From positions 1-47,376 of the IMG/VR virus record IMGVR_UViG_3300029577_000022: a stretch of 47,376 nt of DNA, one strand, 5' to 3'. Position numbers and translations under genes: made by a program. Shown piece by piece: positions 90 through 47,376 of this stretch (positions are counted from its first letter, which is position 1; the number at the start of each line of letters is the position of its first letter). The notes under the pieces are model-generated. The model made no database searches and was not told the DNA's origin. It worked only from the letters and a program-made list of their open reading frames with translations. The stretch comes from a virus.

Positions 90-585
90 AGGCGTAAAAA
101 CAGATGACACGGTTACATCGAAACAAAAAACTGCTATTCTTAATAGGATGAAATTTAATGGCTATAAAAAAGGTTCTGAACACATAGACAAGAGTCAATT
201 AGCATGGACACAAGAAGATAAACGAGAAATGATTTATCGTGCTTCTGACGGTGCAGTTTTAACAAAACTTAATCCAGGAGATAAAGTGTTCACAAATGGG
301 ATGACTGAGAATCTTTGGAAAATGGCACAGATGAATCCTTCTTTATTGACCTCTGGTATCAACTATATGCCGAATTTACCTGAAATAACAAAATCTGCTG
401 GCACATCTACGATTGTTGAAGTTGGTGATATCGTGATGAACGGTGTCAATGATCCTGAAACATTCGGTAGACAGTTGCGAGAAGAAATTTGTAAGAACGG
501 AAAGACAACACAGTGTATTACTGAAGCAGTTTCTGCCAAGCAACTTGGTAAAAATGGTGTAGGTAATGCAAGGTTATATAAGTAA
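1..585 (+). CDS. Tail tape measure protein, C-terminal part (continuation of 40304..47376 across the circular junction)
   Basis: Frame 1 is open from base 1 and is the same frame as 40304 once the 47,287 offset is applied. The segment AWTQEDKREMIYRASDGAVLTKLNPGDKVFTNGMTENL resembles the conserved C-terminal TMP module. Stop at 583..585. Confidence 0.8.
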   Translation, partial: QEHADLWKYIVKNYGRTPTNKMYKKLGGILGVKTDDTVTSKQKTAILNRMKFNGYKKGSEHIDKSQLAWTQEDKREMIYRASDGAVLTKLNPGDKVFTNGMTENLWKMAQMNPSLLTSGINYMPNLPEITKSAGTSTIVEVGDIVMNGVNDPETFGRQLREEICKNGKTTQCITEAVSAKQLGKNGVGNARLYK

Positions 586-761: not shown

Positions 762-1043
762 ATGACAAAGAAAATGGAAAAACTTATTAGAAATTATTGG
801 AGCATCAGTAAGATTGTTGCGGTAGTGCTTACAATCTGCAATTACAGTATGTGGACAGAACCTTTTAACTTTATCAAGGCTATTGCGATGCTTGTTATTG
901 GTTCAGTTGCTACGTTTATTGCAATCAATGTATTTGATATGGTTGTAGGTGTTATTGTGAGTATTTGTAAGAAAGTTCATAGACATTTCTATGACAAAAG
1001 ATTATTAAAAGCATTCTGTGAGCAGAAGGAAGATGAGGTATAA
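762..1043 (+). CDS. Small membrane protein (two hydrophobic helices). A holin-like role is only a guess.
   Basis: GGAGGA ribosome-binding site. Hydrophobic segments IVAVVLTICNYSMW and AIAMLVIGSVATFIAINVFDMVVGVIVSI. Confidence 0.6.
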   Translation: MTKKMEKLIRNYWSISKIVAVVLTICNYSMWTEPFNFIKAIAMLVIGSVATFIAINVFDMVVGVIVSICKKVHRHFYDKRLLKAFCEQKEDEV

Positions 1044-1045
1044 AG

Positions 1046-1669
1046 ATGCATAACATTAAAGCAAAGCATTATATAGAATATACAAAGGATGGTATTACAG
1101 ACAAATTCCACGAAGGAGATAAGGTGATATGCCGAACTGCGGACAAGGAACACACAGGAACAATCACTTGTGTTGGAGAGTTCAAAGAGAATGAAGAAGC
1201 AGAACCAGTAACAGTTATTTGTCTTGATACTTCTAAATCTGTATGGAGTTATTCAAGTGAGATTATCAAATTTGATGATATTGAGTTTATGTGCAAGGAT
1301 TTCTTGGCAGATTGCAATATAGATAATGATATGACGGATGAAGAGTTACAGAAAAATACATATATTAGCTTATTTGTCGGTATGGGATATGACAGAGGGA
1401 AGGTAGAAAATACATGGAATAACGTGTATAGCTTGATGAAACAGTTTGATATTCCATTTGAAAAAGCTATGGGATGTATGATGTACGCATTCCAATATGA
1501 TTGTGGAATTGAAATTCCATTAAGAAATATTTGCGGTATTAATGTATCTGGTATCGAAAAATCAATGCCTATATATCAGAGAGAAGCTACAAAATGTTTA
1601 TGTGGAGCGTTGGTAAGTGGTCTTGTTTACTTACTTGCCGATAAATTGGAAAAGGAATTAGAAAAATAA
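1046..1669 (+). CDS. Hypothetical protein
   Basis: 207-aa ORF tightly coupled to the upstream gene. No motif recognised. Confidence 0.55.
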   Translation: MHNIKAKHYIEYTKDGITDKFHEGDKVICRTADKEHTGTITCVGEFKENEEAEPVTVICLDTSKSVWSYSSEIIKFDDIEFMCKDFLADCNIDNDMTDEELQKNTYISLFVGMGYDRGKVENTWNNVYSLMKQFDIPFEKAMGCMMYAFQYDCGIEIPLRNICGINVSGIEKSMPIYQREATKCLCGALVSGLVYLLADKLEKELEK

Positions 1670-1716: not shown

Positions 1717-1738
1717 AAGGAGTGTGATTTTTATAGAA

Positions 1739-1963
1739 ATGACAGAGCAAGAAGAAAGAACAAATTGTGTAATACCGATTTGGAAGAAGTACACACTATC
1801 TGTTCAAGAAGCAGCAGAGTATTTTGGCTTTAGTGATAAAAAGATTAGAAAGATTGTTGATGAACACGAAAACGATAACTTTATTTTGTGGAATGGTACA
1901 AGACCACGCATAAAACGACAGTTATTTGAAAAGTTTGTAGATGAGAAATTGACAGCCATTTAG
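1739..1963 (+). CDS. xis: Excisionase-like helix-turn-helix DNA-binding protein
   Basis: YTLSVQEAAEYFGFSDKKIRKIV resembles excisionase-family HTH, and the gene sits directly upstream of int. The track start GTG 1724 is only 1 nt from the ribosome-binding site, so ATG 1739 is an alternative. The start is uncertain. Confidence 0.55.
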   Translation: MTEQEERTNCVIPIWKKYTLSVQEAAEYFGFSDKKIRKIVDEHENDNFILWNGTRPRIKRQLFEKFVDEKLTAI

Positions 1964-2061: not shown

Positions 2062-3255
2062 TTGTCAGAAATTAGAAGAGACAACAAAGGTCGTAAGCTA
2101 GCGACTGGGGAGAGCCAGGATAAAGATGGAAGATACCGTTATAAATATAATGATTCATTTGGAAAGAGAAAATCAGTATATAGTTGGAGATTGACTGAAT
2201 CTGATCCATACCCAAAGGGGAAACGAAAAGATATTTCTCTTAGAGAAAAAGAGAAGGTTATTGAGAAAGCATTAAGTGATGCAGTTTCTACTAATGGTGG
2301 AGATATGACGGTATTAGAATTGGTACAGAGATATATTAGTCAAAAACGAGGTGTAAAACATAATACACAGGCGAATTATAACTTTGTTATCAATGTGATT
2401 AAAAAAGAAGATTTTGGAGCAAGGCGAATTGATACAATCAAATTATCAGATGCTAAAACATGGCTGATAAAGTTACAGGATGATGGTAGAGGATATAGTT
2501 CTATCCATTCTATTAGAGGTGTTGTAAGACCAGCTTTTCAGATGGCAGTTGATGATGATTTGATAAGAAAGAATCCGTTTGAGTTCCAGCTTGCAACGGT
2601 AGTTGTGAATGATAGTGTAACAAGAGAAGCTATTACAAGAAAACAGCAGAGAGAATTTTTGAGGTTTATTAAAGAGGATAAGCATTTCTGCAAATACTAT
2701 GATGGAATTTATATCTTATTTAATACTGGATTGCGTGTCTCTGAATTTGTCGGTTTGACAGCAAATGATATTGAATTTGACAAGCAGAGAATTAAGATTG
2801 ACCATCAATTACAAAGGACACGCAATATGGAATATGAGATATTAACACCTAAGACTGAAAAGGGTGAGAGATATGTTCCTATGAAAGAAGATGTTGCAGA
2901 TTGTTTTCGTAGGATTATACAGAATAGAAAGCATCCAAAGATTGAGCCTATGATAGATGGTTATAGTGGCTTTTTGTTCTTAGATAAGAATGATATGCCT
3001 ATGGTTGCTTTACATTGGGAAAAGTATTTCCAACATATCCGTGAGAAGTATAACAGTATTTACAAAGTACAAATGCCGTGTATTACACCTCATGTATGCA
3101 GACACACCTTCTGCTCTAATATGGCAAAGTCTGGTATGAACCCAAAAACATTACAATATATAATGGGACATTCAGATATAGGAGTTACCCTTAATACATA
3201 TACTCATTTACAGTTTGAGGATGCCTTAGTAGAGATGAAAAAGGTCGTGGGCTAA
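2062..3255 (+). CDS. int: Tyrosine integrase, Tn916-Int-like, with an N-terminal arm-binding domain
   Basis: The N-terminus MSEIRRDNKGRKLATGESQDKDGRYRYKY closely parallels the Tn916 Int N-terminus. The C-terminal catalytic region reads HVCRHTFCS...GHSDIGVTLNTYTH. TTG start with an AAGGAGAG ribosome-binding site. Confidence 0.9.
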   Translation: MSEIRRDNKGRKLATGESQDKDGRYRYKYNDSFGKRKSVYSWRLTESDPYPKGKRKDISLREKEKVIEKALSDAVSTNGGDMTVLELVQRYISQKRGVKHNTQANYNFVINVIKKEDFGARRIDTIKLSDAKTWLIKLQDDGRGYSSIHSIRGVVRPAFQMAVDDDLIRKNPFEFQLATVVVNDSVTREAITRKQQREFLRFIKEDKHFCKYYDGIYILFNTGLRVSEFVGLTANDIEFDKQRIKIDHQLQRTRNMEYEILTPKTEKGERYVPMKEDVADCFRRIIQNRKHPKIEPMIDGYSGFLFLDKNDMPMVALHWEKYFQHIREKYNSIYKVQMPCITPHVCRHTFCSNMAKSGMNPKTLQYIMGHSDIGVTLNTYTHLQFEDALVEMKKVVG

Positions 3256-3525
3256 AAGGTATGAAAATAGCCCAGAATTTAGCCCAAATGAAGGAAAAGT
3301 TATGCAAAGTTATTCCAAATTATGCTGAAAATGTGAACAAAAGCACTATCACAGAAATATTGCAGAATTGTTGTAAGTGCCGAAAATACAGTAAAATCAA
3401 GCGTTTAGAGAGGTTTTAGATATATGATAAAAATATTATTTGTTTGCCACGGCAGGAGACTAACTTCTTGTTAAAAGTGCTTTATTTACTAGGGTTTGAG
3501 CGATACAGCATTGGATTTTAGCCCA
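3248..3525. promoter_or_regulatory. Candidate attP arm-type sites: TAGCCCA at 3268, 3280 and 3519, plus an inverted copy at 3248
   Basis: The 7-mer recurs within extended similarity TTTAGCCCA..AAATGAA, in the ORF-free region directly after int. Confidence 0.4.
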
Positions 3526-3774: not shown

Positions 3775-3927
3775 ATGTTTGGAACAGTAACACGATATTT
3801 TAATGACAAAGGATATGGATTTATCCGTGGAGAATTTGTAAGTGACAGAAGCGATTATAACGCAGCAGATGTATCTATCATTGATGCACCAGAAAGGAAC
3901 AGACAGCATGGCAAAGGTAATAAATAA
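3775..3927 (+). CDS. Short protein with a cold-shock-domain-like N-terminus (50 aa)
   Basis: AGGAGG lies 7 nt upstream. MFGTVTRYFNDKGYGFIRGEF carries the RNP1-like KGYGFI motif. The protein is shorter than a canonical CSD. Confidence 0.5.
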   Translation: MFGTVTRYFNDKGYGFIRGEFVSDRSDYNAADVSIIDAPERNRQHGKGNK

Positions 3928-4348
3928 TATGGACGATTTAGCTATTGCATTGCAGCCAGTAATGAAGAAAATGGTTGACAATATGGCGAATAGAGTATAT
4001 GAAACTTTAAACTTCTTTCTGCAAAGATATTACGATTCATATGATCCGATTTATTATCGCAGACAGTATGACTTCTTGAGGTCAGGCTTTAAGGTTAATG
4101 CAAGAATTGTCAGAGGTAAGGCGATAGCATCGGTTTATATTGATGTGGACTATATGAGTAATTACTATGGTGTAACTGGTCAACAGGTCGCAACATGGGC
4201 GAATGAAGGGTTACATGGTGGAAAGAATTTAGCATCTAACACACCGCATGTATGGGATGCAACAATGGCAAATACTGTAGACAATGGAGCATTGTTAAGA
4301 GATGCAGTTGCTTATTTGAGAAGTCAAGGATTTACAGTTAGAGTATAA
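3908..4348 (+). CDS. Hypothetical protein. It could be a phage morphogenesis remnant, but that is unverified.
   Basis: The ORF track frame begins at 3842. ATG 3908 (MAKVINNMDDL) is the more plausible start. No firm motif. Confidence 0.55.
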   Translation: MAKVINNMDDLAIALQPVMKKMVDNMANRVYETLNFFLQRYYDSYDPIYYRRQYDFLRSGFKVNARIVRGKAIASVYIDVDYMSNYYGVTGQQVATWANEGLHGGKNLASNTPHVWDATMANTVDNGALLRDAVAYLRSQGFTVRV

Positions 4349-4365: not shown

Positions 4366-4659
4366 ATGAGATTACTTAAACAGGATGTAATAGACAAATT
4401 AGCTGAAAAGACAGGCTTATATAAAAAAGATGTACGAGCTGTATTAGATTCATTCCATGAATTAGTTTATGAAGAATTGGATGCAGATAATTCAATTCTT
4501 ATCACAAATCTTTTTAAGGTTGAGCCAATAACAGTTGATTCAAGAAAAAGATACAGTCCGTATGTTGATGATAATTACTACATTGAGAAAGAACATAAGA
4601 CAGTAAAAATCACACCAGCTTCAAATCTATTGGATAGCTTGAAGAAAGAGGAAGAGTAA
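4366..4659 (+). CDS. hup: HU/IHF-family DNA-binding protein
   Basis: 97 aa. KQDVIDKLAEKTGLYKKDVRAVLDSFHELVYEEL and the overall layout match the HU fold pattern. Strong ribosome-binding site. Confidence 0.75.
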   Translation: MRLLKQDVIDKLAEKTGLYKKDVRAVLDSFHELVYEELDADNSILITNLFKVEPITVDSRKRYSPYVDDNYYIEKEHKTVKITPASNLLDSLKKEEE

Positions 4660-23957: not shown

Positions 23958-24230
23958 TTGAAAGTCATTAGTTATTTGATACTTAGTTGGTTATATAGAA
24001 CTGATGCAAAAAGCAAAATTATAGCAGCCACAAGAAAAATGATACTTGATGGACTTGCAGAAGAAGGAACAAGTTATTGTGATAAGACCATTTATAACAA
24101 CCTTAGAAATCTGATACAAGGTGGGTATGTAAAAAATGGAATGCCAGTAGGTAATACATATACATATTACATTACATCTAAAGGTATGAATTGGTTAAAA
24201 GAAATGGAAGAGGAAGAAACGGAGGAATAA
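23958..24230 (+). CDS. Winged-helix DNA-binding protein, TubR-like paralog (copy 2)
   Basis: TIYNNLRNLIQGGYVKNG...TYYITSKG parallels copy 1. The TTG start lies 7 nt after GGAGGT, and ATG 23943 is an alternative. Confidence 0.5.
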   Translation: MKVISYLILSWLYRTDAKSKIIAATRKMILDGLAEEGTSYCDKTIYNNLRNLIQGGYVKNGMPVGNTYTYYITSKGMNWLKEMEEEETEE

Positions 24231-24235
24231 TTATT

Positions 24236-25339
24236 ATGAACAAAAAAATTAACGCAGGATTAAAAATTACAGGCATTGGATGTGGTCAGTGCGGAACACA
24301 GATTATTGCAGAAATCGAAAGAGCAGTAAATCTTCTTGATGGTGATAAGTCAAATCTTTCATTTATTGGAATTAACACAAGTACAGAAGATTTAGCATCT
24401 GTTAGCTTATCTCACAAGATTCATATCAATAATTCTAAGGGTGCTGCTTGCGATAGGGATAAGAGTACAGAAGCATTGGCAGAAGGCATTGATGAAATTT
24501 TAGAAGAATTACAGTCTTACATTATTGAGGATTCAATTATTTTTATTGCATTTTCATGTGGTGGAGGAACAGGATCGGCTATTGCACCTATTCTTAGTGG
24601 AATATTAAAGGAAATGGGATATTCGGTTGGTATGATTCCTGTATTGCCAGCAGATACAGAACCATTAAAGGTAAGAGATAATGCAAGATTGACATTTAAT
24701 GAGATTGATGAATTAAAGCCAGAAATGGGAAGTATTTTTATCCTTGACAATAATGCAAGCGACAAAATTACTGTAAATAAAGTGTTCGCTTCATTATTTA
24801 CAGGTATTCTTTGTATCAATAATAAATCCCAGGATGGAAATATGGATTTGGCAGAAATTGAAGCTTGCTTAAAGTGTCCGTCATTCTCTGTCATTACAAA
24901 AACCAATGCAACAAAGGGAACGACTGCAAATATCATTGATATTTTAAATAAGGATAACAATATTTTTGCAAAGAGAGAGGACAAGACTGTTACGATTATG
25001 GGTATTTCTGAAGCTGTATCAGCAAAGGAAAGTAAGATTGATATTATTCAGTTGCGTAAAGAGGTAGGAACAGCACCAACAGAATTTCATGGTTATCTGT
25101 CTGAATCAGAAGAAAATGTAATTATTCTTAGTGGTTTAACAATGCCATACAGTAGATTGGATTCAATGACAGATGCTATTGAGAAAGAAGCTGTGAATGT
25201 TCAAAACTCTATGAAAGCATTAACAGAAGTAAGAACTGCAAAATCATTAGATATATTTGGACAGAAGGCAGAGCCAGTTGTAGCACCAAAGAAGTCAAAT
25301 AGATTAGATGCACTAAAAGCAAGAAGAATCAGCAAGTAA
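24236..25339 (+). CDS. tubZ: Tubulin/FtsZ-superfamily GTPase, TubZ/PhuZ-like
   Basis: T1-like GIGCGQCGTQI and the tubulin signature SCGGGTGSAIAP are present. 367 aa. ATG follows GGAGGA. Confidence 0.75.
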   Translation: MNKKINAGLKITGIGCGQCGTQIIAEIERAVNLLDGDKSNLSFIGINTSTEDLASVSLSHKIHINNSKGAACDRDKSTEALAEGIDEILEELQSYIIEDSIIFIAFSCGGGTGSAIAPILSGILKEMGYSVGMIPVLPADTEPLKVRDNARLTFNEIDELKPEMGSIFILDNNASDKITVNKVFASLFTGILCINNKSQDGNMDLAEIEACLKCPSFSVITKTNATKGTTANIIDILNKDNNIFAKREDKTVTIMGISEAVSAKESKIDIIQLRKEVGTAPTEFHGYLSESEENVIILSGLTMPYSRLDSMTDAIEKEAVNVQNSMKALTEVRTAKSLDIFGQKAEPVVAPKKSNRLDALKARRISK

Positions 25340-36596: not shown

Positions 36597-39398
36597 GTGT
36601 ACATAGAGTCAATGCAAGCAAATCAAGTGTATATAGATGCGTTAAAAGATGAGGGCATTGTCATTCACAAGATAAAAGATGAATGGGTAGAATTGAACAA
36701 GGTATCTACTAGAAAAGCAGTACTTGCAGATAGCTTATTTCTTAGATTTATGGATGAAAGTATTACAAGAATTGGTGGTAAATTTAGCAAGGACTTCATT
36801 ATATTAAAGTTTGATTATGATGCTGAATATAAAATTAATGGTGGAGAACCCCAAAAGATAAAGAAAGACGATTTAAGAACATATTACTATACGAATGGAG
36901 TGACATTTACTTCTGAGGTCAAGGACACAAAGAAGAGGAAACAGGCAAAGGAAGATGAAAGATGTCATCCAATACATTATAAGATGCTTATGCGCTCCCC
37001 TGGTAAAGCAAAAGATGGAGAATGTGTATTTATTAGGGATAATCTGTATCATAAAGCTATAAATTTTTTGACTATGGGTTTATACGACATAATGGATGAG
37101 CAATCAAAACAGAATCCAGATAAAATATTTAAGATAGTCGAATTATCAGCATATCTTACGTTAACAACAGCATCTGCCAATGGTTATATAAGGATTCCTT
37201 GGAATAGAATACTTGTTGTTCCAGATGAGGAAGTTTATTCCAAGCCACAAAAGGCTGTAATTGTAAGCAATAAATCTGTGTCATATACATATGATGAAAA
37301 AGAGTTTTTTATTCATTTTGACGATTCACATATTGAAGAACTTATTAACAAGAAGGGCTGTACATTTGATAAGAATAAATCAATCAATGAAAATCTTAAA
37401 TACATTGAGAAGACAAAGGAAGCTCTTAAAGATAATGGTATTAGATGGAATGGAAACTATGGTCATTCAGAGATAACTAAAAAAGAAGAAATAAGACAAG
37501 AATGTGATGCAAAATATGTTTCTGATGAGAGGGTAAAAAATATTCTGTGGGACGGAATGGGATTAATTGATGAATCAATTTTTCCTAAAAATATGAATGG
37601 ATTTATATACTGTAGGTCACATTTCTTCAAGAGTTGTTTGTTCTGTGGAAATATTCAAGAATTTTTCAGAGACTATTGTGCGGAAAATGGAATTGACTAC
37701 AATAGTTTTACTACTGAGAAAATTGATTTATTTGGAAGAAAACTAAGCTTATCTAATATTGATGTTGTTATTACAGATAAATCACTAAAATGGTTGAAGT
37801 TTGTTGATATGATGGGAGGGACGCAAAAAGAAGCGTTTAAATTTTATAAAAATTATATGAAAGAACATGATAATTGGTTTACGATTGTAAAGACAGCTCA
37901 TCCTAGTAAATGGGGAGGTATGCAGTTAATGGCTTATCAAATGAATAATTCACTGCCTACTACAGATGAAGAGATTCTTTCCCGAATTGCAGAAGATTCA
38001 GTTGATTATATTAAAGAGTTAAAGAAAACAACGGATACAGCATATTTACAATATCTTAATCAAAAGAAAAATAATTTCAATATTAATGAAGTTATTTTGG
38101 CATTGGTAAAATGGAATCCTGATTTTAGGAGGACAGCTTTTTTTAGGGATAAAAAGACTAAAGATATAAGCAAACTGAAAAATGAATATTTTAAACAGGG
38201 AAGATTGCTACAGAATGGGGACAATCTTACAGTTATGGGAAACCCGATTGCTTTATTAATGAAAGCAGTAGGTGGAAATCCAATAGAAGAAAATATTTTT
38301 GAGGTGGAAAAGGATGCAATTCAATGTTATACAGCAAGGTTTAAAGATGGAGAAAAATTAGCCGCTTTTAGAAGTCCACATAATTCTCCGAATAATATTC
38401 TACATTTTCATAATGTCTATTCAGACAAATTATCCAAGTACTTTGCAAATTTAGGACGAAATGTGATTGTGATAAATATGGTTGGAACAGATGTACAAGC
38501 TAGAGCCTCGGGAATGGATGAAGACACCGACTTTGTTTATACAACAAATCAACCAGACCTTGCGGAACTTGCGAGAAAAGCTTATACAAATTATCCGACT
38601 ATCATCAATGGTGTGGCAGAAAAGGGGAATAGTTCATATCATTTTAGATTAGAAGATTTTGCACAAATGGATAATCAAATTGCAACAGCACAGCAATCTA
38701 TTGGCACCTCTACAGATACAGCGCAATTAGCCTTGAGTTATTACTATGATGAGGGAATGGATGAGGGGCAAGATGGGGAGGAATTGAAGAAATGTTTTGT
38801 TATATTATCTGTAATTGGTCAGATTAGTATTGATCTTGCTAAAAAGGAATTTGATATAGATGTAGTAAACGAAATTAATCGTATTAAAAGACTACCATGT
38901 ATGAAAGGTAAGGATATACCTGAGTTTTTTGCAAGTACAAAGAAAAGTCGAAATAATAAAGAATTTAATGAAGAAGAAATTCGCTCGATGAATTGTCCTA
39001 TGGATATAATTGCTAGAAATATAGATAGTAGAGTTGTGGGACAAGCTATGGGTGTAACAAGACTTCCTATATCAAAATTTCTTAATAGCAACATTAAAGG
39101 CAAGGGAAATAAATATAAATGGAAAAAATTTATAGAAGCGTCAGAAGTGTATAATAGGTCAATAAAGTATATTGAACAACACAAAACTCAATATACCAAA
39201 AATAGTTACATAGATTTAAAAATGGACTGTATGAGTCATTTTTTGAATTGCACAAACAATAATTTAGATCAAGAGACAGTTATGTTGTTGGTAAAATATG
39301 CTTTTAGTAATAATAATTCAGATGTATGCCAAACAATTTTAAACTTCCTTTATATGAATAATCGTGATAAATTTCTAAATTGTTTTGTGAAAAAGTGA
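36597..39398 (+). CDS. YonO-like single-subunit RNA polymerase candidate (two-barrel, eukaryotic-RdRP-related family)
   Basis: LAAFRSPHNSPNNILHFHNV...RNVIVINMVGTDVQARASGMDEDTDFVYTTNQ parallels the RdRP/YonO pattern R-P-x-x-x-P-x-x-I ... V-I-V-F ... S-G-G-D-L-D-G-D. The upstream WDGMGLIDESI and SAYLTLTTAS...ILVVPDEE resemble earlier conserved RdRP blocks. The start is uncertain (GTG 36597 or ATG 36612). Confidence 0.55.
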   Translation: MYIESMQANQVYIDALKDEGIVIHKIKDEWVELNKVSTRKAVLADSLFLRFMDESITRIGGKFSKDFIILKFDYDAEYKINGGEPQKIKKDDLRTYYYTNGVTFTSEVKDTKKRKQAKEDERCHPIHYKMLMRSPGKAKDGECVFIRDNLYHKAINFLTMGLYDIMDEQSKQNPDKIFKIVELSAYLTLTTASANGYIRIPWNRILVVPDEEVYSKPQKAVIVSNKSVSYTYDEKEFFIHFDDSHIEELINKKGCTFDKNKSINENLKYIEKTKEALKDNGIRWNGNYGHSEITKKEEIRQECDAKYVSDERVKNILWDGMGLIDESIFPKNMNGFIYCRSHFFKSCLFCGNIQEFFRDYCAENGIDYNSFTTEKIDLFGRKLSLSNIDVVITDKSLKWLKFVDMMGGTQKEAFKFYKNYMKEHDNWFTIVKTAHPSKWGGMQLMAYQMNNSLPTTDEEILSRIAEDSVDYIKELKKTTDTAYLQYLNQKKNNFNINEVILALVKWNPDFRRTAFFRDKKTKDISKLKNEYFKQGRLLQNGDNLTVMGNPIALLMKAVGGNPIEENIFEVEKDAIQCYTARFKDGEKLAAFRSPHNSPNNILHFHNVYSDKLSKYFANLGRNVIVINMVGTDVQARASGMDEDTDFVYTTNQPDLAELARKAYTNYPTIINGVAEKGNSSYHFRLEDFAQMDNQIATAQQSIGTSTDTAQLALSYYYDEGMDEGQDGEELKKCFVILSVIGQISIDLAKKEFDIDVVNEINRIKRLPCMKGKDIPEFFASTKKSRNNKEFNEEEIRSMNCPMDIIARNIDSRVVGQAMGVTRLPISKFLNSNIKGKGNKYKWKKFIEASEVYNRSIKYIEQHKTQYTKNSYIDLKMDCMSHFLNCTNNNLDQETVMLLVKYAFSNNNSDVCQTILNFLYMNNRDKFLNCFVKK

Positions 39399-39450: not shown

Positions 39451-39921
39451 AGCATTTTCAATATCTCCTTATGGAAGAAAGTACTGCGCATGAAAAGACC
39501 GTAGGCTGAGTAGTGCGTGGGAAACTTCCAACAACAATTTAATCAATAGCTCCTATAAATCACTTCTATAGGATTCACTATTATTTCACTAAAGTAAGGT
39601 AGGGTGTGATAGCTCTGCCATTCTCCGATAATATCACCCTATGGGTGTTTATTATATGTTTTGAATATCATATTATTGGCAGGATTTAATTGTCCTGCCA
39701 GACAAGGGTAATAATGGTTTCTGAGGTGGGCAGTAACTTTTATTATAAGCGTTGATGTGCTGGCTCAAACACGGCATGTTAGCATAAAGTACACACGTTG
39801 TATTTCAAAACAATAAACAATGATTAAGTGGACAGACTGATTCAAACTAGGTCTGTCCTCCTAATTGTACGAATTTAAAATATTACCAGTGTGATTGATT
39901 TTTGCACTGGTCTATTTTTTT
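39451..39921 (+). ncRNA. Hairpin-rich non-coding transcript or leader candidate ending in an intrinsic terminator
   Basis: Stems seen are tggaag..cttcca, cctata..tatagg, agggtg..caccct, ggcagga..tcctgcc and ggacagac..gtctgtcc. The last hairpin is accagtg..cactggt followed by ctattttttt. Confidence 0.35.
39885..39921 (+). terminator. Rho-independent terminator upstream of the HTH-TMP gene pair
   Basis: 7-8-bp stem followed by a T7 run. Confidence 0.65.
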
Positions 39922-39973: not shown

Positions 39974-40150
39974 ATGACACAGGAAGAACTTAGGGCTATG
40001 CTAAATAAGAGATTGATTCGAGAAAAAGCAAGTTATATCTGTTCTGTTACAGGACTAAATAAAGATGTATTATCACGATTCAAAACAGGAAAAATTGACT
40101 TATATCCTAATCTATTCGAGAGATTAGAAGACTATCTATTAAATTCATAA
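39974..40150 (+). CDS. Small XRE/Cro-like HTH protein (58 aa, below the cutoff)
   Basis: MTQEELRAMLNKRLIREKASYICSVTGLNKDVLSRFKTGKIDLYPNLFERLEDYLLNS. GGAAGGAG ribosome-binding site. Confidence 0.55.
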   Translation: MTQEELRAMLNKRLIREKASYICSVTGLNKDVLSRFKTGKIDLYPNLFERLEDYLLNS

Positions 40151-40303: not shown

Positions 40304-43300
40304 TTGAATAACTTTATTTTACAGTTGGTTGCTGGTCTTAATAAGACAAAAAGCAAGCAACAGATTAAGTCAGACGCAAAAAGTCTTGGCGACATGAAGT
40401 TCGTCAAGCTGATTGGTAACCTTGATATGCCAAAAACAAGGAAAGCAATCAAAGCACAGTTGAAGGGATTAAATAATCTTACATTCAACATCACACCGAA
40501 TGTAAATACAAAAGGTGTACAGACAGCAACCAAACAGGCAATTAACAATGCACAGAGGGTTGCAAATAGTAATAAGGTTCATCTGAACTTTGATACAAGC
40601 AAGCAACAGTTAGTGAACCAGATTAAGATTCTGGGAAGGAATAATAATAAACTTTTCAATAATCATGAAATGACCGCTAAATACAATCAGTTGCTTAATG
40701 CCGCTAATGTAGCAAAGAGTACAGGAGAACTAAAAACTCTTAGAGGTGAGTTGTCGGCATTTAAGACGGAGCTTGTAGCAACGAATAATGCAGGTATGAC
40801 TTGGGGAAGTAAATTCAAAGAATCTGTTAAGAGTTATACGAAATTTTTTAGTGGTGCAAGTCTGGTTTATGCCATTTCTAATCAGGTCAGAAATGCAGCA
40901 ACCGAAGCAAAGACATTAGATGATAGTCTTGTAAATCTTCAGAAAGTAACAGATGAAATTTCTGACAGAGATGCGTTATACAAGTATTTTAACAAATCTC
41001 TTAGCAAGGCACAGGAACTTAATGTAAAAGTTGGTTCATTGATTGACGCTGTAACAGAGTTTAAAAAGCTTGGTTGGGATTTAGACGATGCAGAACTTGG
41101 TTCGAAGTGGGCAAACATTTTATCAAACGTTGGAGATCTTAATATTGATACGGCAATCGGTTCAATTAAAACCTCTATTGCTTCATTTGATGAAATTGGT
41201 GGATATGGTAATGACCAGATGGACAAGAAACTTGAAGCTTATGCAGACCTCATCAATAATATGTCAAACAAGTACAGTATTGATGCGGAAGGGTTAGCCG
41301 AAAGCATTAGATTATCGGCTGGTACATTGACAGAAGCACATATGAGTATTGAACAAGCTGCTACAATGTTTGCTACAGCTAATAAATACTATAATGATCC
41401 GTCATACCTCGGTAACACAGCAAAGATCGGTTCATTAAGAATGAGAGCTTCATCTGGTGACACAGATGCTATTGAAGAGTTGCAGGAGATGGGCGAAGAA
41501 GTTGACGATTTAGCAACAGCCACAAGTAACTTGCGTGAAAAGCTCATGGCATTAACTGGTGTTGATATTATGGAAGATGAGCATACATTCAAATCTTATT
41601 ATGACCAGTTATACGAGATTTCACAAGTTATGGATAAGTTGGATGATACCTCACGTGCAAATGTTCTTGAGACTATATTCGGTAAATCGAGAAGTGCAGC
41701 AGGTGCCGCTATTTTATCTGGTATGAAGGAATCTGCATCAGCTTATGAAGATGCAATCAATAGTGCAGGAAGTGCTACAGAAGAGTATCAAACTTGGATG
41801 ACCAGTGCTGACGCAGCGTGTCAGAGGTTTTCTAACACTCTTACAGAGACATATCAGAGTATTATCAATGGTAATACAGTACGTGACCTTGCCAATTTAG
41901 GTTCGGCAGTTTTGGAATTTGCTAATAATTGGGGAATTGTAGAAGGTACGCTAAAAGGTGTAATTGCACTCAATCTTGGTAAATTTATTGCTACTGGTGG
42001 TATGGCACTCATTACAGCTACAAAACAAGTAGAGCAATATGGAAAAGCCTTACAGAAGGCAAGTAATGTTCCGAATGGTAACTTATCTGCTAGATTCCAG
42101 GCATTAAAGAGTATTGCACAGGCAACAAGTACATTGACAACAGAACAGTTAAGAAATGTATTAGCCACAAACACACTTACTCAGGCTGACAGAGTGCGTA
42201 TCTTACAGATGCAAGGTATGACAAAAGAGATGGCATTACAGAAACTTGCTGAAATGAATTTAACGCAAGCGACAAATGCACAGACCGCAGCTAATACAGC
42301 TAGTACAGCAAGTACATTTTCGCTTAAAGCGGCTATGACAGGACTTGGTGCGACATTAAAGAGTGTGTTTCTTAGCAATCCAGTAGGAATTGTACTTATG
42401 GGTATAAGTCTTGGAGTTAGTGCAGTAACATCCGCAATATCTAAGCATAATCAAAAGTTAGAGGAAGATCGGCAGAAAGCTAAAGAAGCAGCAGACGCAG
42501 CCAATACATTAGGTGATGAGATTGCTACATTAGCAAACAAATACATCCAGTTATCGGATGCAGTAAAAACAGACGCAAGTGCAAAAGAAGATTTAATGAC
42601 TACACAGACAGAGTTATTAAAGAAACTTGGACTTGAAGGAGAAAGCATTGATGATTTGATTGCGAAATATGGTTCTTTATCAAATGCCATTAAACAAGCA
42701 AGCATTGATTCATTGAAAAATCAACAGATTGACTTGATTGCTGGTGTAAATGCAGCAAAAGAAGAGTTGATGGATGTTGCAAAAGATAACTTCTGGGGTA
42801 CTAACAATATTATTAGTGCATCGGGAGAAGAAGCAGTAAAAGCATTTAAAGAGCTTGAAAAAGCTGGTGTAATTGATAGTGGTTCATATGGTACTGGTGG
42901 TGGTCAGTTAGTTTTAATTGGCGATGATACAGTTGAGGGAGCATTAGAAAATTACAAAAAACTCGAAGATGCAGTAAACGCATTAAGAGATTCAGAAGCA
43001 TTCACGGCTGATGAATTATCAGACAATTCACTATTTAATTCTATCTATAGTAGGTATAGTGAGATGAAGGAATCAGTAGAGGCATACAATTCATCTATTG
43101 ATAACTTAAATGAAAACTTGGCTCAACAGACAATGTTGATAGCGTTACAGGGTAATGAATTACCTAAGACAGAAGAAGACTTTAACAAATTTAAGCAAGA
43201 GCTGATTGATACAGCAGTTGCAAGTAAACAATTTATTGGAAACGAAAAGGAGATTACCGATGCGATTAACAATTATCTATCGACAGTTCCTGAGTTTGAA

Positions 43301-46300
43301 GGCTATTACAGCATTCCTCTGGAAAACGAACTTGATAAAGTAGATGAATTGTTGAATCAAGAGGACTTTTCAAAAACATTTACTGATACGCTTGCACAAG
43401 TTCAGGCTTTATCGGATGGTTTAGACCAACTTGATAAAATCTATGCTGATGTTTACAACAAAGAGGATTTTGATTGGTCATCTATTCTAAATAATGACGA
43501 CTTCAAAGAACAATTCGGGTCATTAAAAGATACTACAGAAGAATATGCAAATGCATATAATAATTTTATCAAAACAGTAAGCAATTCTCCGTCTGATTTG
43601 TCGGCTTGTCAATCAGCATTTGATAATCTTGCATCGGCATATATTTATAATTCTGATGCACTAAAAAATGTAACAGAAGAGACAAAAACAGCTACAGTGG
43701 CTATGCTTGAGCAAATGGGTGTTGCTAATGCATCTGAAATTGTTGATTATCAATTAGCCGCAAGCAAGGAGTATGCTGCACAGACAGGCAGAGACTTAAA
43801 AAATGCTACATTGGAAGAACTCGTTGCATTTGCACAGGAAGCAGATATGTCAGATGTGACAAAAGCTTCTCTAGCAAGTTACATAGCAGAAAAAATACGT
43901 GCAGCAAGTATTACAATCACCACTTCTGCGGATATTGCAAATCTTACAGCTTTATGTTCGCAACTTGGAGTCGCAGGAACTGCACTACAACAGTTTGCTC
44001 GCTTAAAAGCTATCGCAATGGATACAAGTGGAAAATATACAGATGGTTATAAAGAATATGCTACTACTGCGGCTGATCAGATTTTACAAAACGCTGTGAG
44101 CAAAGCAACAAGTGCGTATAAACCACAAGTTAACTATTCTGGTGGTGCATCTACTAAATCTGCAATAGATAAAGCCAATAAAGCAGCGAAGGACTCTGCT
44201 AAAGATGCAAAAGAAACCGCACAAAACATCGACTGGATCGAAACGAAATTAAAATTGGCTTCTAAGGAAACAGAAAAGCTTAGCAAATCTTTCGACAAAG
44301 CGTTTGGTATGAATCAGACAAGAGAAAGATACCAAGCATATATTTCTCAGATAGAATCCGAGATCCATGACAATACAACCGCCGCACAGGTATATCAAGA
44401 GAAGTTAAATCAGATTGGTTTATCCTATGAGTGGATTGCAAAGATTCAGTCAGGTGCATTTTCTATTGACAGTATTACAGACGAAAATCTCAAAACTCAG
44501 ATATCCGAATATCAGACATATTCAGATAAGTTAAATAGCTGTTACGACACTATTGAGAGTCTTGAAGAAGAACGTCTGCAAGCTTCTGTTAATTATGCTG
44601 AAAAATTAATTGACTCCCATGAAAAAGAAATAGATTCGATTAATAAACTGATTGATCGTAGAAAAGCATTAGTTTCTTTAAAGGAAACATTCGGTTTATC
44701 TGCTTCCAAATCTGACTTGAAATATCAACAGGATCAGTATGAACAGGAAATTGATGCGCTTGAAAGACAGAATAAAGAAATATACGATCTCATGTGGACT
44801 ACTACTTATGGTGACGAAGCATGGCAAAAGTATAACGACCAGATGATTGAAAATACTTCCAGTATTCAAGATCTCACACAGTCTCTTGCTGATTTAGCAT
44901 CTGAAATGGCTAATCTTCCGATTGACAAGTATGAAAAAGCTTTAGATAAGATTTCTGCAAAAAATGATTTACTTGATGCAAAACTTGAGAATGCTACGAG
45001 CGATAAAGCTAAGAGTAAAATTATTGGTAGTCAGTTGAAGCTTACTAGGAAGAAAGATAACAGTGCTCAGTCTGCGGCTAAAACGACACAAAGTAATTTG
45101 AATCAGTCTGTTAAGGATTTAAAAACTGCAACGAAAAAGGATAATAATATATCTGTTTACAACGTTGACGCTTCGGGTCCCAATGTAAAAGCAAGAACTG
45201 CGGTAAATGGCTACTATAAAAAAGTACAGAATTATACCAAGGCAAAGAAACAAATTCCAGCTTCTTTAATTTCTAAAATTTCTGGTGACGGATACTCTAC
45301 ATTATCAAAAGCATGTGCTAATTACAATGCTGCTTTAGTTGCCAACGACACAGCACAAGCAACGGCTGCTTTAAGTAGAGAAACTATCAGACAGGAACTC
45401 GCTGATTTAGCGGAACAGAGAGCGAGTCTTGCAAAGACAACTGCTGATTCCAAAGTTGAGAAATATGATTCTAAAGACGAACTGTATGATGCTAAACTCG
45501 ACAACGCTACTTCTACTTCTTCTAAGAATAAACTGATTGACAGAAAGATTTCTAATATCAACAATCGTCAGAGTGCGTATAATACTGCGGTTAAAACTGA
45601 TAATAAGAATATCAAATCAGCACAGAAAAATATCAGCAAAATCAAGTCTACGAAAGAGAATAAGAAGGTTCTCACTTCTATCAAGAAGACTGCTAAAGCT
45701 GGGAAACGTATTTCCCAATCTTTGTTAAACAAAGCTGCAAAACTGAATGATGGTGGAAAGTTATATGATGCATGTATTCAGTATAACGCTTATTTAGATG
45801 CGAAAGAAGCCGACAAAGCTACTGCTGATTTATACAAAGAAACAGCAAAACAGGATAAGGCTACTCTTGCAAAAGAAAAGTTTGATAATATTGCATCCAA
45901 CTATGATAATAAAATTTCTAGCAATGAGCAGAAAAAGACAGAAATAAATAATAGAATTTCTCTCGTAGAGGAATTTGGTGAACAGGCAAATGTATCTGAT
46001 TATAAGTCACTTATCTCTGCTGAAAATGGCGAATATCAAAAACTCATTAAAGAGCGTGAAGAACTTCGGAGAAATTTAGAAGAGTCTGTTGTAAATGGTT
46101 CTATCAAAAAAGGCAGTGATGAATGGTATGATATGGTCGCTAAAATCAATGATGTAACAAATGCCATAGATGAATCAATTCAATCAATTAAACAATACCA
46201 GAACGCTCTTCGTCAATTAAAATGGGATACTTTTGACAAGTCCATGGAAACTGTAAAACGTGTCAATAGTGAAGCTGATTACTATATTGATCTTTTGAGT

Positions 46301-47376
46301 CATAAAGATATGACTGATAAAGACACTGGTAATTTCACTGAATATGGTATTGCTACAATTGGATTGCACAAGACGAACTATGACAATTATATTGCACAGG
46401 CAGAAGCATATCAGTCTGAATATGATAAAATTATGAAACAGATTGAGAAAGGCGAATTGTCTGCATCTGATGAAAATGTTATTCAACGTCTGCGTGATTT
46501 ACAGGATGCTCATAGAGAGGCGAAGAAATCTGCCGAGGATGAGTTAGAGTCTATTAATGATCTTGTGAAACAGGGCTATGAAGCACAAACAGATGCGCTG
46601 AGTAAACTGATAGAAAAGTTCAAAAAGTTAAAAAATAACGCTCTTGACTATTATAAATATGCTAAGTCTATAATAGAAAAAACTAAGCAGATTGCAGCAT
46701 TACAGAAACAGTTAATTGCTTATAATGGCAATGATTCCGAAGAATCTCGTGCGACAATTCAGAAGTTAAAAGTACAGCTTGAAGAATCAAAAAGTGATTT
46801 ACAGGATACTATTTATGAACGGTATTTATCTGATACTGAGGATATGCTTGACGATCTGATGAGTGATTATCAGGAATTCATTGACGAAAAACTCAATGAT
46901 ACTAATAACATTCTTGACGGTATCAAAACCCTTATTGGTGGCAATGATGGTATTATTGCAACACTGAAATCCTTAGATTCAAGTCTGACAAATACTACAA
47001 AAGATCAGATTGATTCTAGTACTACCAATGGTGGTGACGGAGGACAAGGCGCAAAGGATTATGTAAATAATACTGTTACTAATGATCGGAATACTATCAA
47101 TTCATCTTATAAAACTGGACTTTTACGACCAACAGCAGTTGGTGCTATAACTCTTGATAATTCCTTGGAGTCAAAAAAGAAAAATACAACTTCTATTGAT
47201 GATAAGTTAAAAAAGGAAAAGAAAGCAGTTAAAGATGCCATTAATTCTGGTAAATCTCGCAGTAAGAAATTAACTGATAAAGAGAACCAAGAACATGCTG
47301 ACTTATGGAAGTATATTGTAAAGAATTATGGTAGAACTCCTACTAATAAAATGTACAAGAAGTTAGGTGGCATACT
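40304..47376 (+). CDS. Tail tape measure protein, N-terminal and central part. The ORF runs off the window end and continues at 1..585.
   Basis: TTG start lies 6 nt after AAAGGAG, with an in-frame TAA at 40301. The frame has no stop to the window end, which is why it is absent from the ORF track. The translation contains a TP901-type TMP core (SLVNLQKVTDE...GSLIDAVTEFKKLGW...ANVLETIFGKSRSAAGAAIL), hydrophobic segments and long coiled-coil-like stretches. Confidence 0.85.
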   Translation, partial: MNNFILQLVAGLNKTKSKQQIKSDAKSLGDMKFVKLIGNLDMPKTRKAIKAQLKGLNNLTFNITPNVNTKGVQTATKQAINNAQRVANSNKVHLNFDTSKQQLVNQIKILGRNNNKLFNNHEMTAKYNQLLNAANVAKSTGELKTLRGELSAFKTELVATNNAGMTWGSKFKESVKSYTKFFSGASLVYAISNQVRNAATEAKTLDDSLVNLQKVTDEISDRDALYKYFNKSLSKAQELNVKVGSLIDAVTEFKKLGWDLDDAELGSKWANILSNVGDLNIDTAIGSIKTSIASFDEIGGYGNDQMDKKLEAYADLINNMSNKYSIDAEGLAESIRLSAGTLTEAHMSIEQAATMFATANKYYNDPSYLGNTAKIGSLRMRASSGDTDAIEELQEMGEEVDDLATATSNLREKLMALTGVDIMEDEHTFKSYYDQLYEISQVMDKLDDTSRANVLETIFGKSRSAAGAAILSGMKESASAYEDAINSAGSATEEYQTWMTSADAACQRFSNTLTETYQSIINGNTVRDLANLGSAVLEFANNWGIVEGTLKGVIALNLGKFIATGGMALITATKQVEQYGKALQKASNVPNGNLSARFQALKSIAQATSTLTTEQLRNVLATNTLTQADRVRILQMQGMTKEMALQKLAEMNLTQATNAQTAANTASTASTFSLKAAMTGLGATLKSVFLSNPVGIVLMGISLGVSAVTSAISKHNQKLEEDRQKAKEAADAANTLGDEIATLANKYIQLSDAVKTDASAKEDLMTTQTELLKKLGLEGESIDDLIAKYGSLSNAIKQASIDSLKNQQIDLIAGVNAAKEELMDVAKDNFWGTNNIISASGEEAVKAFKELEKAGVIDSGSYGTGGGQLVLIGDDTVEGALENYKKLEDAVNALRDSEAFTADELSDNSLFNSIYSRYSEMKESVEAYNSSIDNLNENLAQQTMLIALQGNELPKTEEDFNKFKQELIDTAVASKQFIGNEKEITDAINNYLSTVPEFEGYYSIPLENELDKVDELLNQEDFSKTFTDTLAQVQALSDGLDQLDKIYADVYNKEDFDWSSILNNDDFKEQFGSLKDTTEEYANAYNNFIKTVSNSPSDLSACQSAFDNLASAYIYNSDALKNVTEETKTATVAMLEQMGVANASEIVDYQLAASKEYAAQTGRDLKNATLEELVAFAQEADMSDVTKASLASYIAEKIRAASITITTSADIANLTALCSQLGVAGTALQQFARLKAIAMDTSGKYTDGYKEYATTAADQILQNAVSKATSAYKPQVNYSGGASTKSAIDKANKAAKDSAKDAKETAQNIDWIETKLKLASKETEKLSKSFDKAFGMNQTRERYQAYISQIESEIHDNTTAAQVYQEKLNQIGLSYEWIAKIQSGAFSIDSITDENLKTQISEYQTYSDKLNSCYDTIESLEEERLQASVNYAEKLIDSHEKEIDSINKLIDRRKALVSLKETFGLSASKSDLKYQQDQYEQEIDALERQNKEIYDLMWTTTYGDEAWQKYNDQMIENTSSIQDLTQSLADLASEMANLPIDKYEKALDKISAKNDLLDAKLENATSDKAKSKIIGSQLKLTRKKDNSAQSAAKTTQSNLNQSVKDLKTATKKDNNISVYNVDASGPNVKARTAVNGYYKKVQNYTKAKKQIPASLISKISGDGYSTLSKACANYNAALVANDTAQATAALSRETIRQELADLAEQRASLAKTTADSKVEKYDSKDELYDAKLDNATSTSSKNKLIDRKISNINNRQSAYNTAVKTDNKNIKSAQKNISKIKSTKENKKVLTSIKKTAKAGKRISQSLLNKAAKLNDGGKLYDACIQYNAYLDAKEADKATADLYKETAKQDKATLAKEKFDNIASNYDNKISSNEQKKTEINNRISLVEEFGEQANVSDYKSLISAENGEYQKLIKEREELRRNLEESVVNGSIKKGSDEWYDMVAKINDVTNAIDESIQSIKQYQNALRQLKWDTFDKSMETVKRVNSEADYYIDLLSHKDMTDKDTGNFTEYGIATIGLHKTNYDNYIAQAEAYQSEYDKIMKQIEKGELSASDENVIQRLRDLQDAHREAKKSAEDELESINDLVKQGYEAQTDALSKLIEKFKKLKNNALDYYKYAKSIIEKTKQIAALQKQLIAYNGNDSEESRATIQKLKVQLEESKSDLQDTIYERYLSDTEDMLDDLMSDYQEFIDEKLNDTNNILDGIKTLIGGNDGIIATLKSLDSSLTNTTKDQIDSSTTNGGDGGQGAKDYVNNTVTNDRNTINSSYKTGLLRPTAVGAITLDNSLESKKKNTTSIDDKLKKEKKAVKDAINSGKSRSKKLTDKENQEHADLWKYIVKNYGRTPTNKMYKKLGGI
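47288..47376. repeat. Terminal overlap, copy B (identical to 1..89)
   Basis: Same comparison as copy A. This is the signature of a circular or terminally redundant assembly. Confidence 0.95.

Follow-up and report, generated by a model that had tools for sequence, protein, structure and literature searches.

Why does a mobile element of 47 kb carry the gene for a giant tape measure protein (TMP), when the genes for building a virion around it are missing? The question is raised by the IMG/VR virus record IMGVR_UViG_3300029577_000022, whose whole length of 47,376 nucleotides is termed the window in what follows. Unlike typical TMP genes, the giant gene does not lie among chaperone genes and distal-tail and baseplate genes. 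A first-pass annotation offered three explanations: a satellite or plasmid lending a tail ruler of its own to some helper phage, a bipartite phage, or a TMP fold put to some other use.

The window represents a 47,287-bp circle, its two ends being identical over 89 nt. The giant ORF, announced at about 2,522 aa, does reach 2,522 aa when read through the circle junction, joining 40304..47376 with 90..585 (Table 1). Independent assemblies contain an uninterrupted counterpart of 2,524 aa at 96% identity, one copy being chromosomally integrated, and the giant gene recurs whether the assembly comes from SPAdes, MEGAHIT, Logan or IMG; an assembly chimera is therefore ruled out. Both junctions of integrated copies map to the att core, placing the insertion at the start of a host phosphatase gene. 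Megablast with the giant gene gave no match in phage and plasmid collections, and a scan of GTDB species representatives gave a single distant Lachnospiraceae MAG and nothing else.

Table 1. Features of the element, by position in the window; aa ranges refer to the giant protein
Feature	Position	Strand	Basis or remark
Terminal duplication	1-89 (copy of 47288-47376)		ends of the window
Giant tape measure gene, codons 1-2357	40304..47376	+	TTG start; RBS GAAAGGAG upstream
Giant gene 3' end, aa 2358-2522 and stop	90..585	+	contiguous gene in loci L002-L005
N-module, aa 1-1027	40304..43384	+	private to the 42-58 kb element family
C-module, aa 1028 onward	43385..47376, on to 585	+	
PF10145 PhageMin_Tail domain, aa 237-460	41012..41683	+	Pfam
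Hydrophobic segment, aa 552-572	41957..42019	+	
Hydrophobic segment, aa 681-714	42344..42445	+	
C-terminal conserved TMP motif, aa 2396-2445 (WTQEDKREM...GDKVFTNGMTENLWKMAQMNP)	202..351	+	aligns with PMBT24 TMP C-terminus
93-aa hydrophobic protein	762..1043	+	conserved partner 3' of giant gene
207-aa protein	1046..1669	+	confined to this element family
Tn916-type excisionase (Xis)	1724..1963	+	Pfam
Tn916-type tyrosine integrase (Int)	2062..3255	+	Pfam, PHROGs; Tn916 DNA-binding domain
att core, 31 nt	3424..3454	+	equals first 31 nt of host low-molecular-weight phosphatase gene
146-aa YomN-family protein	3908..4348	+	UniRef label 'HK97 gp10 family phage protein'
HU-like DNA-binding protein	4366..4659	+	counterpart of SPbeta yonN
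TubZ-like tubulin GTPase, plasmid/prophage partition	24191..25339	+	
YonO-family single-chain RNA polymerase homologue, 933 aa	36597..39398	+	DxDxD motif 'DEDTD' at aa 641
58-aa ORF	39974..40150	+	directly 5' of giant gene throughout family

The giant protein is a TMP, as had been proposed. Its PF10145 domain scores 41.9 bits (E 1.3e-10), where 33.2 would satisfy the gathering score; aa 56-1401 match PHROG 4211 ('tail length tape measure protein') with an E-value of 5e-51; and its tblastn matches are the TMPs of SPbeta-like, Brevibacillus, Enterocloster and Lactococcus phages. SPbeta YomI is collinear with it in both the N-terminal and the C-terminal regions (E 2e-15 and 2e-5), and the TMP of phage PMBT24 is collinear too, its end falling in register with the C-terminal motif. 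The conserved C-terminal module and the hydrophobic central segments of the first-pass annotation were both located (Table 1). Between aa 1001 and 2200 proline and glycine together make up 2-5% of residues, and charged residues 23-36%. Only the finer label of a TP901 core (TIGR01760) found no support, since NCBIfam, TIGR models included, gave no family at E<=0.01 for aa 1-2357.

Genes for a terminase, a portal, a capsid, a tail tube or a lysin, reported as missing on first reading, are indeed found in none of the 72 ORFs by Pfam or PHROGs, nor by phmmer with the ORFs of three related complete phages, a query set that took in PMBT24, the SPbeta late region and the large class-B phages described below. 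The ORFans thus yielded none of these virion genes, and the giant ORF does match TMP families. The broader statement that the element has no recognizable virion module holds for these main genes but overlooked the YomN-family ORF at 3908-4348. Compared with a complete SPbeta-like phage, the late operon has shrunk to the TMP gene and the YomN-like gene, with the polymerase homologue retained. Nothing pointing to packaging or to redirection of capsids (small terminase, scaffold, pac/cos match) was found, and in a comparison covering ~60 kb of one class-B contig the head and tail regions had only the C-terminal module of the TMP in common with the element. One possible small-terminase link, between the ORF at 26375-27148 and the class-B ORF 5' of TerL (phmmer E 0.008), was rejected, with neither the alignment nor PHROGs supporting it; the 15-mers common to the window and class-B loci amounted to noise, the one exception being integrase matches in other members of the element family. 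Relaxase, coupling protein, VirB4 and FtsK-like translocase were likewise found in none of the ORFs by Pfam or PHROGs, and with no conjugation gene at all a conjugative element is ruled out. ARAGORN found no tRNA in the window.

The YomN family is a late-module gene in SPbeta-like phages. In class-B phages a homologue (E 2.5e-7) immediately precedes the TMP gene, and PMBT24 has another close to its TMP gene. A model of the element's own YomN-like protein (pLDDT 70) has no fold match in the PDB, and a PDB sequence profile search was uninformative. A sister subtype, L006, additionally encodes a minor tail protein that matches PHROG 6211 (E 8e-54), homologous to the product of the gene that follows the phage TMP gene. 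Elsewhere on the element, the TubZ-like protein matches PF00091 with an E-value of 2e-16 and TubZ_C_3 with 5.6e-6, at 26.7 bits slightly below the cut-off of 27. A 621-aa PHROG 25531 protein and a 381-aa ORF are candidate replication genes that carry no functional annotation in PHROGs or NCBIfam. Genes of defence type are also aboard: GmrSD_N/DUF262, PIN/CopG and an AAA_21 ATPase.

The immediate surroundings of the giant gene are constant in the family to which the element belongs: YonO-type RNA polymerase, 58-aa ORF, giant TMP, two small ORFs, Xis and Int, in that order. The downstream series of 93-aa ORF, 207-aa ORF and xis/int is as first described, Pfam identifying Xis and Int as Tn916-type. 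The 58-aa gene said to encode a helix-turn-helix protein is where it was placed, but its identity as a regulator comes from one weak transcriptional-regulator match (E 0.014) and nothing else. In its model (pLDDT 77) the 207-aa protein combines a beta-barrel with a helical domain and a C-terminal helix; no known fold emerged from fold searches in the PDB and BFVD, the sole significant match being an uncharacterized family member, and a PDB sequence search gave one non-significant match (E 0.98). The YonO-type polymerase had no match in a PDB sequence search. YonO itself transcribes the SPbeta late operon (PMC5467207).

Elements of this family measure 42-58 kb and are widespread, their architecture being kept in more than 650 homologues and in many contigs of that size. 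Host names in the sources are Agathobacter, Roseburia and Eubacterium, human-gut Lachnospiraceae. Members are inserted at at least two host sites, with different integrases; several diverged subtypes keep the giant ORF intact at 2,100-2,800 aa, and sister alleles bear an NlpC/P60 cell-wall hydrolase domain. The class-B phages are complete temperate phages of 150-190 kb with TerL, portal, capsid, a Dit-like protein and a tail fibre, and they have a YonO-like polymerase and an integrase of their own. Their TMP gene consists of three ORFs, arranged as piece 1, a homing endonuclease gene, piece 2, an 8-kb island and piece 3, the last of which lies 5' of the Dit-like and fibre genes. This split arrangement is kept in hundreds of contigs, with piece 3 under purifying selection. 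Neither the window nor the two class-B loci scanned with Rfam gave an RNA family, and no intron was seen around the homing endonuclease gene.

It is within the TMP gene that element and phage meet. The N-module is 85-96% identical among the sister loci nearest the window and 66-68% identical between the most divergent subtypes, but only ~23% identical to its phage counterparts. The C-module (~1,490 aa, the rear 60% of the gene) shares 95-97% DNA identity with piece 3 of the 150-190 kb phages, exactly up to the stop codon; taken from 43382/43395 to that codon, the range is 90-97%. At the junction motif, ...LLNQEDFSKT ends the one module and FTDTLAQVQALS... begins the other. Both modules are under purifying selection: dN/dS is 0.09-0.23 in the N-module and, when the C-module is compared with the phage copy, 0.17. 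Two of the three other subtypes tested have phage twins of their own, L006 at 88-90% and L014 at 96% aa identity; for the L009 type no close twin was present in IMG/VR. Through their near-identical C-module the class-B phages present themselves as candidate helpers. At 47 kb to 150-165 kb the size ratio of element to large phage is ~0.3, a ratio that also holds for P4 and P2 and for SaPI and 80alpha.

Most likely, then, the element borrows or sabotages the tails of the large phages. Of the explanations first offered, a satellite or plasmid supplying its own tail ruler is the best supported, by the near-identity of the C-module and by the phage twins of the subtypes. In its fuller form, to which we give a probability of roughly one half, the element is a phage satellite of large size and SPbeta-like descent, which puts its own TMP into chimeric tails. 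The window would be the excised or episomal 47.3 kb form of a satellite that arose from SPbeta/c-st-like temperate phages and lives in gut Lachnospiraceae. It would have retained Int/Xis integration, TubZ partition, replication and regulatory genes and the YonO-type RNA polymerase, and lost all head and tail genes other than the TMP gene and the small YonN/YomN-type pair. When a co-resident 150-190 kb class-B temperate siphophage enters its late phase, the element polymerase would transcribe the short 'late operon' that follows it (58-aa ORF, TMP, 93-aa ORF, 207-aa ORF). The helper-matched C-terminal 1,490 aa would dock the chimeric TMP to the tail-tip and tail-tube machinery of the helper, while the tail would become element-specific through the N-terminal 1,027 aa, private to the family, and through the YomN-family protein. 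Helper-made particles with chimeric tails would then carry the element, as for Vibrio PLEs.

Several observations count against the satellite reading. No gene for packaging or capsid redirection was recognized; its own partition system and polymerase, at a size of 47 kb, could allow the element to live as a plasmid with no helper; IMG/VR offers no close phage twin for the L009 type; and the YomN-family protein, modelled without a fold match, has no established function. The near-identity of the C-module could moreover be plain recombination among related prophages.

A decoy of tail assembly would use the same similarity to the opposite end: the TMP of a resident plasmid or island, its C-module matched to invading class-B phages, would co-assemble with their tail-tip proteins, poison tail formation and so protect the population, the element itself remaining unpackaged. 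Tracking of phage variants by the C-module is equally expected here, defences against tail assembly are known (for example Rta of PLE11; PMC12987554), and the defence-type genes aboard fit such a role. A decoy, however, needs no complete TMP, and yet strong purifying selection (dN/dS given above) acts on the N-module, where the PF10145 core and the membrane segments lie; 2,522 aa are costly, and the YomN-family gene is retained, together with a minor tail protein in sister elements. We therefore regard a decoy as unlikely.

An SPbeta-like prophage or plasmid-prophage in decay, its structural module deleted, its TMP left by chance or for some non-virion role and its C-module exchanged by ordinary recombination, would account for a gene set that is a subset of SPbeta-like genes (yonO-, yonN-, yomN- and yomI-like genes and an integrase, with TubZ as in c-st) and in which no helper-exploiting gene was recognized. 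Decay nevertheless sits poorly with a reduced architecture that is stable in several diverged subtypes, each with an intact ORF of 2,100-2,800 aa and with differing integrases and sites; purifying selection extends across the whole gene, module exchange with phages is repeated, and the family is abundant, at 658 homologues. This account, too, appears improbable.

Distinctly less credible is a TMP fold repurposed independently of any helper, for instance as a membrane-spanning conduit for DNA transfer or secretion. The membrane segments of the protein, the NlpC/P60 domain of sister alleles and the Tn916-type Int and Xis could be taken that way. NlpC/P60 domains are, however, frequent in genuine TMPs, searches of the ORFs turned up neither a relaxase nor a coupling protein, a VirB4 or an FtsK-like translocase, and a C-module so close to the TMP ORFs of virions points to a virion role; the proposal is in any case unnecessary. 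A bipartite phage, with head and tail genes on a partner replicon that lacks, or is unable to make, a functional TMP, is the least credible of all: a class-B TMP broken into three ORFs makes an intact TMP in trans imaginable, but the split is conserved in hundreds of contigs with piece 3 under purifying selection, the TMP of ICP1 is likewise made from a split gene (PMC12987554), and the large phages hold their own TMP pieces, YonO-like RNA polymerase and integrase.

Returning to the satellite with chimeric tails, we tentatively propose that the 42-58 kb elements form a new satellite family, the largest known, abundant in dominant gut Lachnospiraceae, capable of plasmid life and equipped with its own polymerase. 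Its members may track their helpers by an undescribed 'adaptor' strategy, swapping the tail-tip-proximal 60% of the TMP at a fixed junction while keeping the head-proximal module and the YomN-type partner. If so, satellite-encoded TMPs and chimeric tails extend from Vibrio PLEs to Gram-positive gut commensals and to elements three times larger than classical satellites, and recombination at one TMP junction would be a concrete way of keeping up with helpers. With candidate helper phages named, the idea is directly testable. It bears on the movement of mobile DNA among abundant butyrate producers, and on gut catalogues, in which some 'viral' contigs are called siphoviruses solely on this one gene.

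Among known systems, Tn916-family elements share the Tn916-type Xis and an Int with the Tn916 DNA-binding domain, but their conjugation genes are missing here. P4, SaPIs/PICIs and cf-PICIs resemble the element in having an integrase and about one-third the size of the helper, and probably also in their own replication and regulation and in reliance on helper virions; they differ in measuring 10-20 kb, in redirecting capsid size or packaging and in classically lacking a TMP, although some cf-PICIs are reported to contain putative tmp genes (PMC12987554, Extended Data Fig. 10). The EPIP satellites of Mycolicibacterium, for which a TMP and tails of altered length are reported (PMC12822802, bioRxiv 10.64898/2025.12.02.691453), encode small terminase, scaffold, major capsid protein and connectors, whereas this element encodes none of these.

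The Vibrio cholerae PLEs (PLE11 and PLE4), which have genes of their own for a TMP, a tail assembly chaperone and a baseplate hub, form chimeric tails with ICP1 (PMC12987554, Nature 2026). The first-pass annotation knew of no description of any such arrangement for a TubZ-bearing plasmid-like element; satellite TMPs have in fact been shown by experiment for the PLEs (PMC12987554) and reported for EPIPs (PMC12822802), and its statement stands for a TubZ-bearing element of this size. PLEs and this element are unrelated in sequence. The PLE TMP is uniformly diverged, whereas in the one described here, a chimera, the rear 60% all but matches the phage version; PLEs measure ~18 kb against 47 kb, and TubZ and an own RNA polymerase are features of the present element, which has no confirmed Rta-like inhibitor, chaperone or baseplate hub. 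The likenesses are those of design: both are integrative, have no full virion module and combine their own TMP with small tail-assembly partners, putative ones in the present element, the element proteins being only ~20-40% identical to the helper versions, and in both the TMP gene of the helper or candidate helper is split (gp79/gp81 of ICP1, pieces 1-3 of class B). The SPbeta-, c-st- and PMBT24-like phages have about three times the genome size and the head, tail-tube, baseplate and lysis genes that the element lacks, but they share with it the YonO-type polymerase and the HU-like, YomN-family and YomI-like giant TMP homologues, with TubZ as in c-st, and in all of them the polymerase gene lies immediately 5' of the late genes.

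This element is an SPbeta/c-st-like genome that has lost its virion module save for an intact, selected tape measure protein (TMP) gene and a YomN-type gene; in its TMP, the tail-tip-proximal part has been exchanged repeatedly for the counterpart from complete phages that circulate with it. Because its ends are identical over 89 nt (1-89 = 47288-47376), the window closes into a circle of 47,287 bp, all of which belongs to the element. Over the 2.8 kb compared, the window was 100% identical to a 47,342-nt contig from ENA. The giant ORF starts with TTG, has the ribosome-binding site GAAAGGAG upstream, and crosses the window end in frame, bearing out the length of 2,522 aa in the first-pass annotation. 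A 96%-identical protein of 2,524 aa is encoded by an unbroken ORF on SPAdes, MEGAHIT, Logan and IMG contigs, one of them a chromosomal contig of 176 kb; its recurrence in these four kinds of assembly rules out an assembly artefact as the source of the ORF.

Pfam PF10145 matches aa 237-460 of the giant protein (E 1.3e-10; 41.9 bits versus a gathering score of 33.2), and PHROG 4211 ('tail length tape measure protein') spans aa 56-1401 (E 5e-51). Its tblastn matches are TMPs from large siphophages of Firmicutes (SPbeta-like, Brevibacillus Sundance, Enterocloster PMBT24/CB473, Thomasclavelia and Lactococcus 949-like). SPbeta YomI is collinear with it near both ends, and the last part of the PMBT24 TMP lines up in register with the C-terminal motif GDKVFTNGMTENLWKMAQMNP of the giant protein. 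Two hydrophobic segments (aa 552-572 and 681-714) precede a long stretch with few prolines or glycines and many charged residues. The profile matches and the collinearity with YomI and the PMBT24 TMP uphold the earlier call of a TMP; the label TIGR01760 attached to it is unsupported, as NCBIfam, which includes the TIGR models, gave no match to the giant protein.

More than 650 homologues of the giant protein were found. Contigs of 42-58 kb repeatedly show the gene order ClpX … YonO-like polymerase … 58-aa ORF … giant TMP (2,092-2,790 aa) … small ORFs … Xis … Int, and the ClpX-to-Int order is also found chromosomally integrated, at no fewer than two sites and with different integrases; source names are Agathobacter rectalis, Roseburia hominis and Eubacterium spp. 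Alignments to integrated copies always end on the right at window 3454 and start on the left at 3424, which delimits the att core. This 31-nt core is identical to the start of a low-molecular-weight phosphatase gene of the host. On contigs L299 and L300 the same att site also carries, in tandem, a second small element, which encodes RepA_N, IstB and an Int of Tn916 type.

An IMG/VR scan sorted the relatives of the giant gene into two classes. Class A, the sister elements of 42-58 kb, has the N-terminal 1,027 aa (N-module) in common, at 85-96% identity in the loci nearest the window and 66-68% between the most divergent subtypes; ClpX is shared too, as is a portion of the polymerase region in some members. 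Contigs of 80-200 kb (many of 148-167 kb) make up class B, which shares with the window only the stretch from 43382/43395 to the stop at 585, with a DNA identity of 90-97% that stops exactly at the giant-gene stop codon. Read along, one 165-kb class-B contig is a complete phage. Its genes run from large terminase and portal (E 5e-85) through a 352-aa product that GenBank names capsid protein and virion structural proteins to a YomN-like ORF. Next comes the TMP gene, in three ORFs, and after it stand a 1,256-aa protein, a Dit-like protein (DUF6558), a BppU-type fibre and the phage's own Int/Xis. A gene for a GIY-YIG homing endonuclease separates TMP piece 1 (642 aa) from piece 2 (249 aa), which carries the second half of PF10145; piece 3 has about 2,000-2,160 aa. 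Between pieces 2 and 3 lies an island of ~8 kb with GmrSD_N/GmrSD-like, Ant and minus-strand ORFs, including homologues of the window GmrSD_N/DUF262 protein (25% identity, E 1e-10). The large phages have their TMP gene split in this way, and Rfam gave no intron match at it. On one contig (L011) a ToxN gene follows piece 3.

The element N-module is only ~23% identical to class-B pieces 1 and 2. It gives way to the C-module (aa 1028 onward) at a sharp junction (…LLNQEDFSKT followed by FTDTLAQVQALS…), which several subtypes share. Two other class-A subtypes have different C-modules, each with its own class-B twin, at 88-90% aa identity in the L006 type and 96% in the L014 type; the fourth subtype (L009) has no close class-B twin. 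For the full giant gene, dN/dS between two class-A copies was 0.18; it was 0.09-0.23 for the N-module and, against the phage copy, 0.17 for the C-module. The L006-subtype TMP ends in an NlpC/P60 domain and is followed by a 955-aa minor tail protein (PHROG 6211, E 8e-54), 28-32% identical to the protein after class-B piece 3.

Features of the element and of compared loci (coordinates without prefix refer to the window)
Feature	Coordinates	Remark
att core	3424-3454	also L002:20414-20444 and L299:4682 onward
YomN-family ORF	3908-4348	146 aa
Three adjoining ORFs	8106-10513	HNH-endonuclease PHROGs 953, 374, 959; first ORF previously noted as HNH-AP2
GmrSD_N/DUF262 protein	15372-16469	
Further HNH endonuclease	17751-18311	
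CopG-like + PIN toxin-antitoxin pair	18715-19342	
Serine recombinase or invertase	19841-20494	
TubZ with two small ORFs ahead	23663-25339	
ClpX homologue	33270-34496	with zinc finger
YonO-family protein	36597-39398	933 aa; PHROG 8308
Terminator-like hairpins	39635-39647, 39885-39911	
Giant TMP gene	40304-47376 and 90-585	
Minor tail protein, L006 subtype	L006:17710-20577	
Split class-B TMP gene	L034:7214-10750 and L027:855-15604	IMGVR_UViG_3300045988_143977

A Pfam and PHROGs scan of all 72 window ORFs found no terminase, portal, capsid, tube, baseplate or lysin. The reported lack of a virion module therefore stands for terminase, portal, capsid, tail tube and lysin, but the YomN-family ORF had been overlooked. 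It is PF27376 'YomN' in precomputed Pfam annotation and 'HK97 gp10 family phage protein' in UniRef. A profile made from it matches the ORF directly upstream of the class-B TMP gene (E 2.5e-7 and 7e-5) and a PMBT24 ORF two genes upstream of the TMP (E 0.003); its structure model, of mediocre quality, gave no fold match. When window ORFs of at least 40 aa were searched by phmmer, the queries being all ORFs from three related complete phages, only the TMP, polymerase, integrase, GmrSD-like and HU proteins were matched.

Apart from the tabulated ORFs, the HNH/AP2-like ones among them, the scan matched Tn916-type Xis and Int, HU, a 621-aa protein (PHROG 25531), a sigma factor, an AAA_21 ATPase, an SprT-like protein and a cold-shock protein. 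Nearly all sister elements keep the ClpX homologue (~86% DNA identity). The first small ORF ahead of TubZ has a weak PadR-like match and may be a TubR-type partner. A YonO homologue is also present in Clostridium phage c-st, a known carrier of TubZ. Several class-A subtypes retain the 93-aa and 207-aa ORFs as conserved partners; the 207-aa family was found only in this element family and has no recognisable fold. BFVD entry A0A8S5L818 (Siphoviridae sp. ctDmQ3), an 87%-identical fragment of the 207-aa protein, was deposited as a siphovirus protein, and gut virome catalogues probably file elements of this family as 'Siphoviridae sp.'.

The 933-aa protein is a single-chain RNA polymerase of the YonO family (DxDxD motif, variant DEDTD), homologous to the PMBT24 'RdRP'. 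The alleles that sister elements carry at this position diverge strongly (954-1,152 aa; DFDGD, DVDGD, DSDFD). Sister alleles match SPbeta yonO (E 8e-35), and one class-B relative has a YonO-like polymerase (39% identity) upstream of its terminase gene. YonO transcribes the SPbeta late operon, which starts just downstream of yonO (PMC5467207). A polymerase upstream of the late genes is the layout common to PMBT24 and SPbeta. The polymerase gene and the 58-aa ORF are 575 nt apart, and both hairpins fall into this gap. Several sister loci regain DNA similarity to the window only from about 40060-40070 onward.

In the simplest functional reading, the element TMP would have to fit the tail machinery of class-B phages, and the element would thus be a satellite that builds chimeric tails with these helpers. 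The element/helper size ratio of ~0.3 fits classical satellite-helper pairs. We put this reading at a probability of about 0.5 and not above, because helper dependence, packaging and uptake of the element TMP are what we infer, and no packaging gene was found in the element. The same TMP acting as a tail-assembly decoy, for defence only, is unlikely. Equally unlikely is a decaying prophage. A TMP repurposed as a conduit is more doubtful still, and a bipartite virus is highly improbable.

A satellite building chimeric tails would have known counterparts; our literature search found no description of this element family. Satellite-encoded TMPs have been known since 2025-2026, and the kind itself is not new. 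In Vibrio PLEs, which bring a TMP, a tail assembly chaperone and a baseplate hub of their own, chimeric tails were demonstrated experimentally (PMC12987554); a chimeric-tail mechanism is also reported for mycobacterial EPIPs (PMC12822802). New here are the host group, the size, the equipment with TubZ and YonO, the lack of a capsid gene and, above all, a modular TMP with a fixed junction and a rear module matched to the putative helpers.
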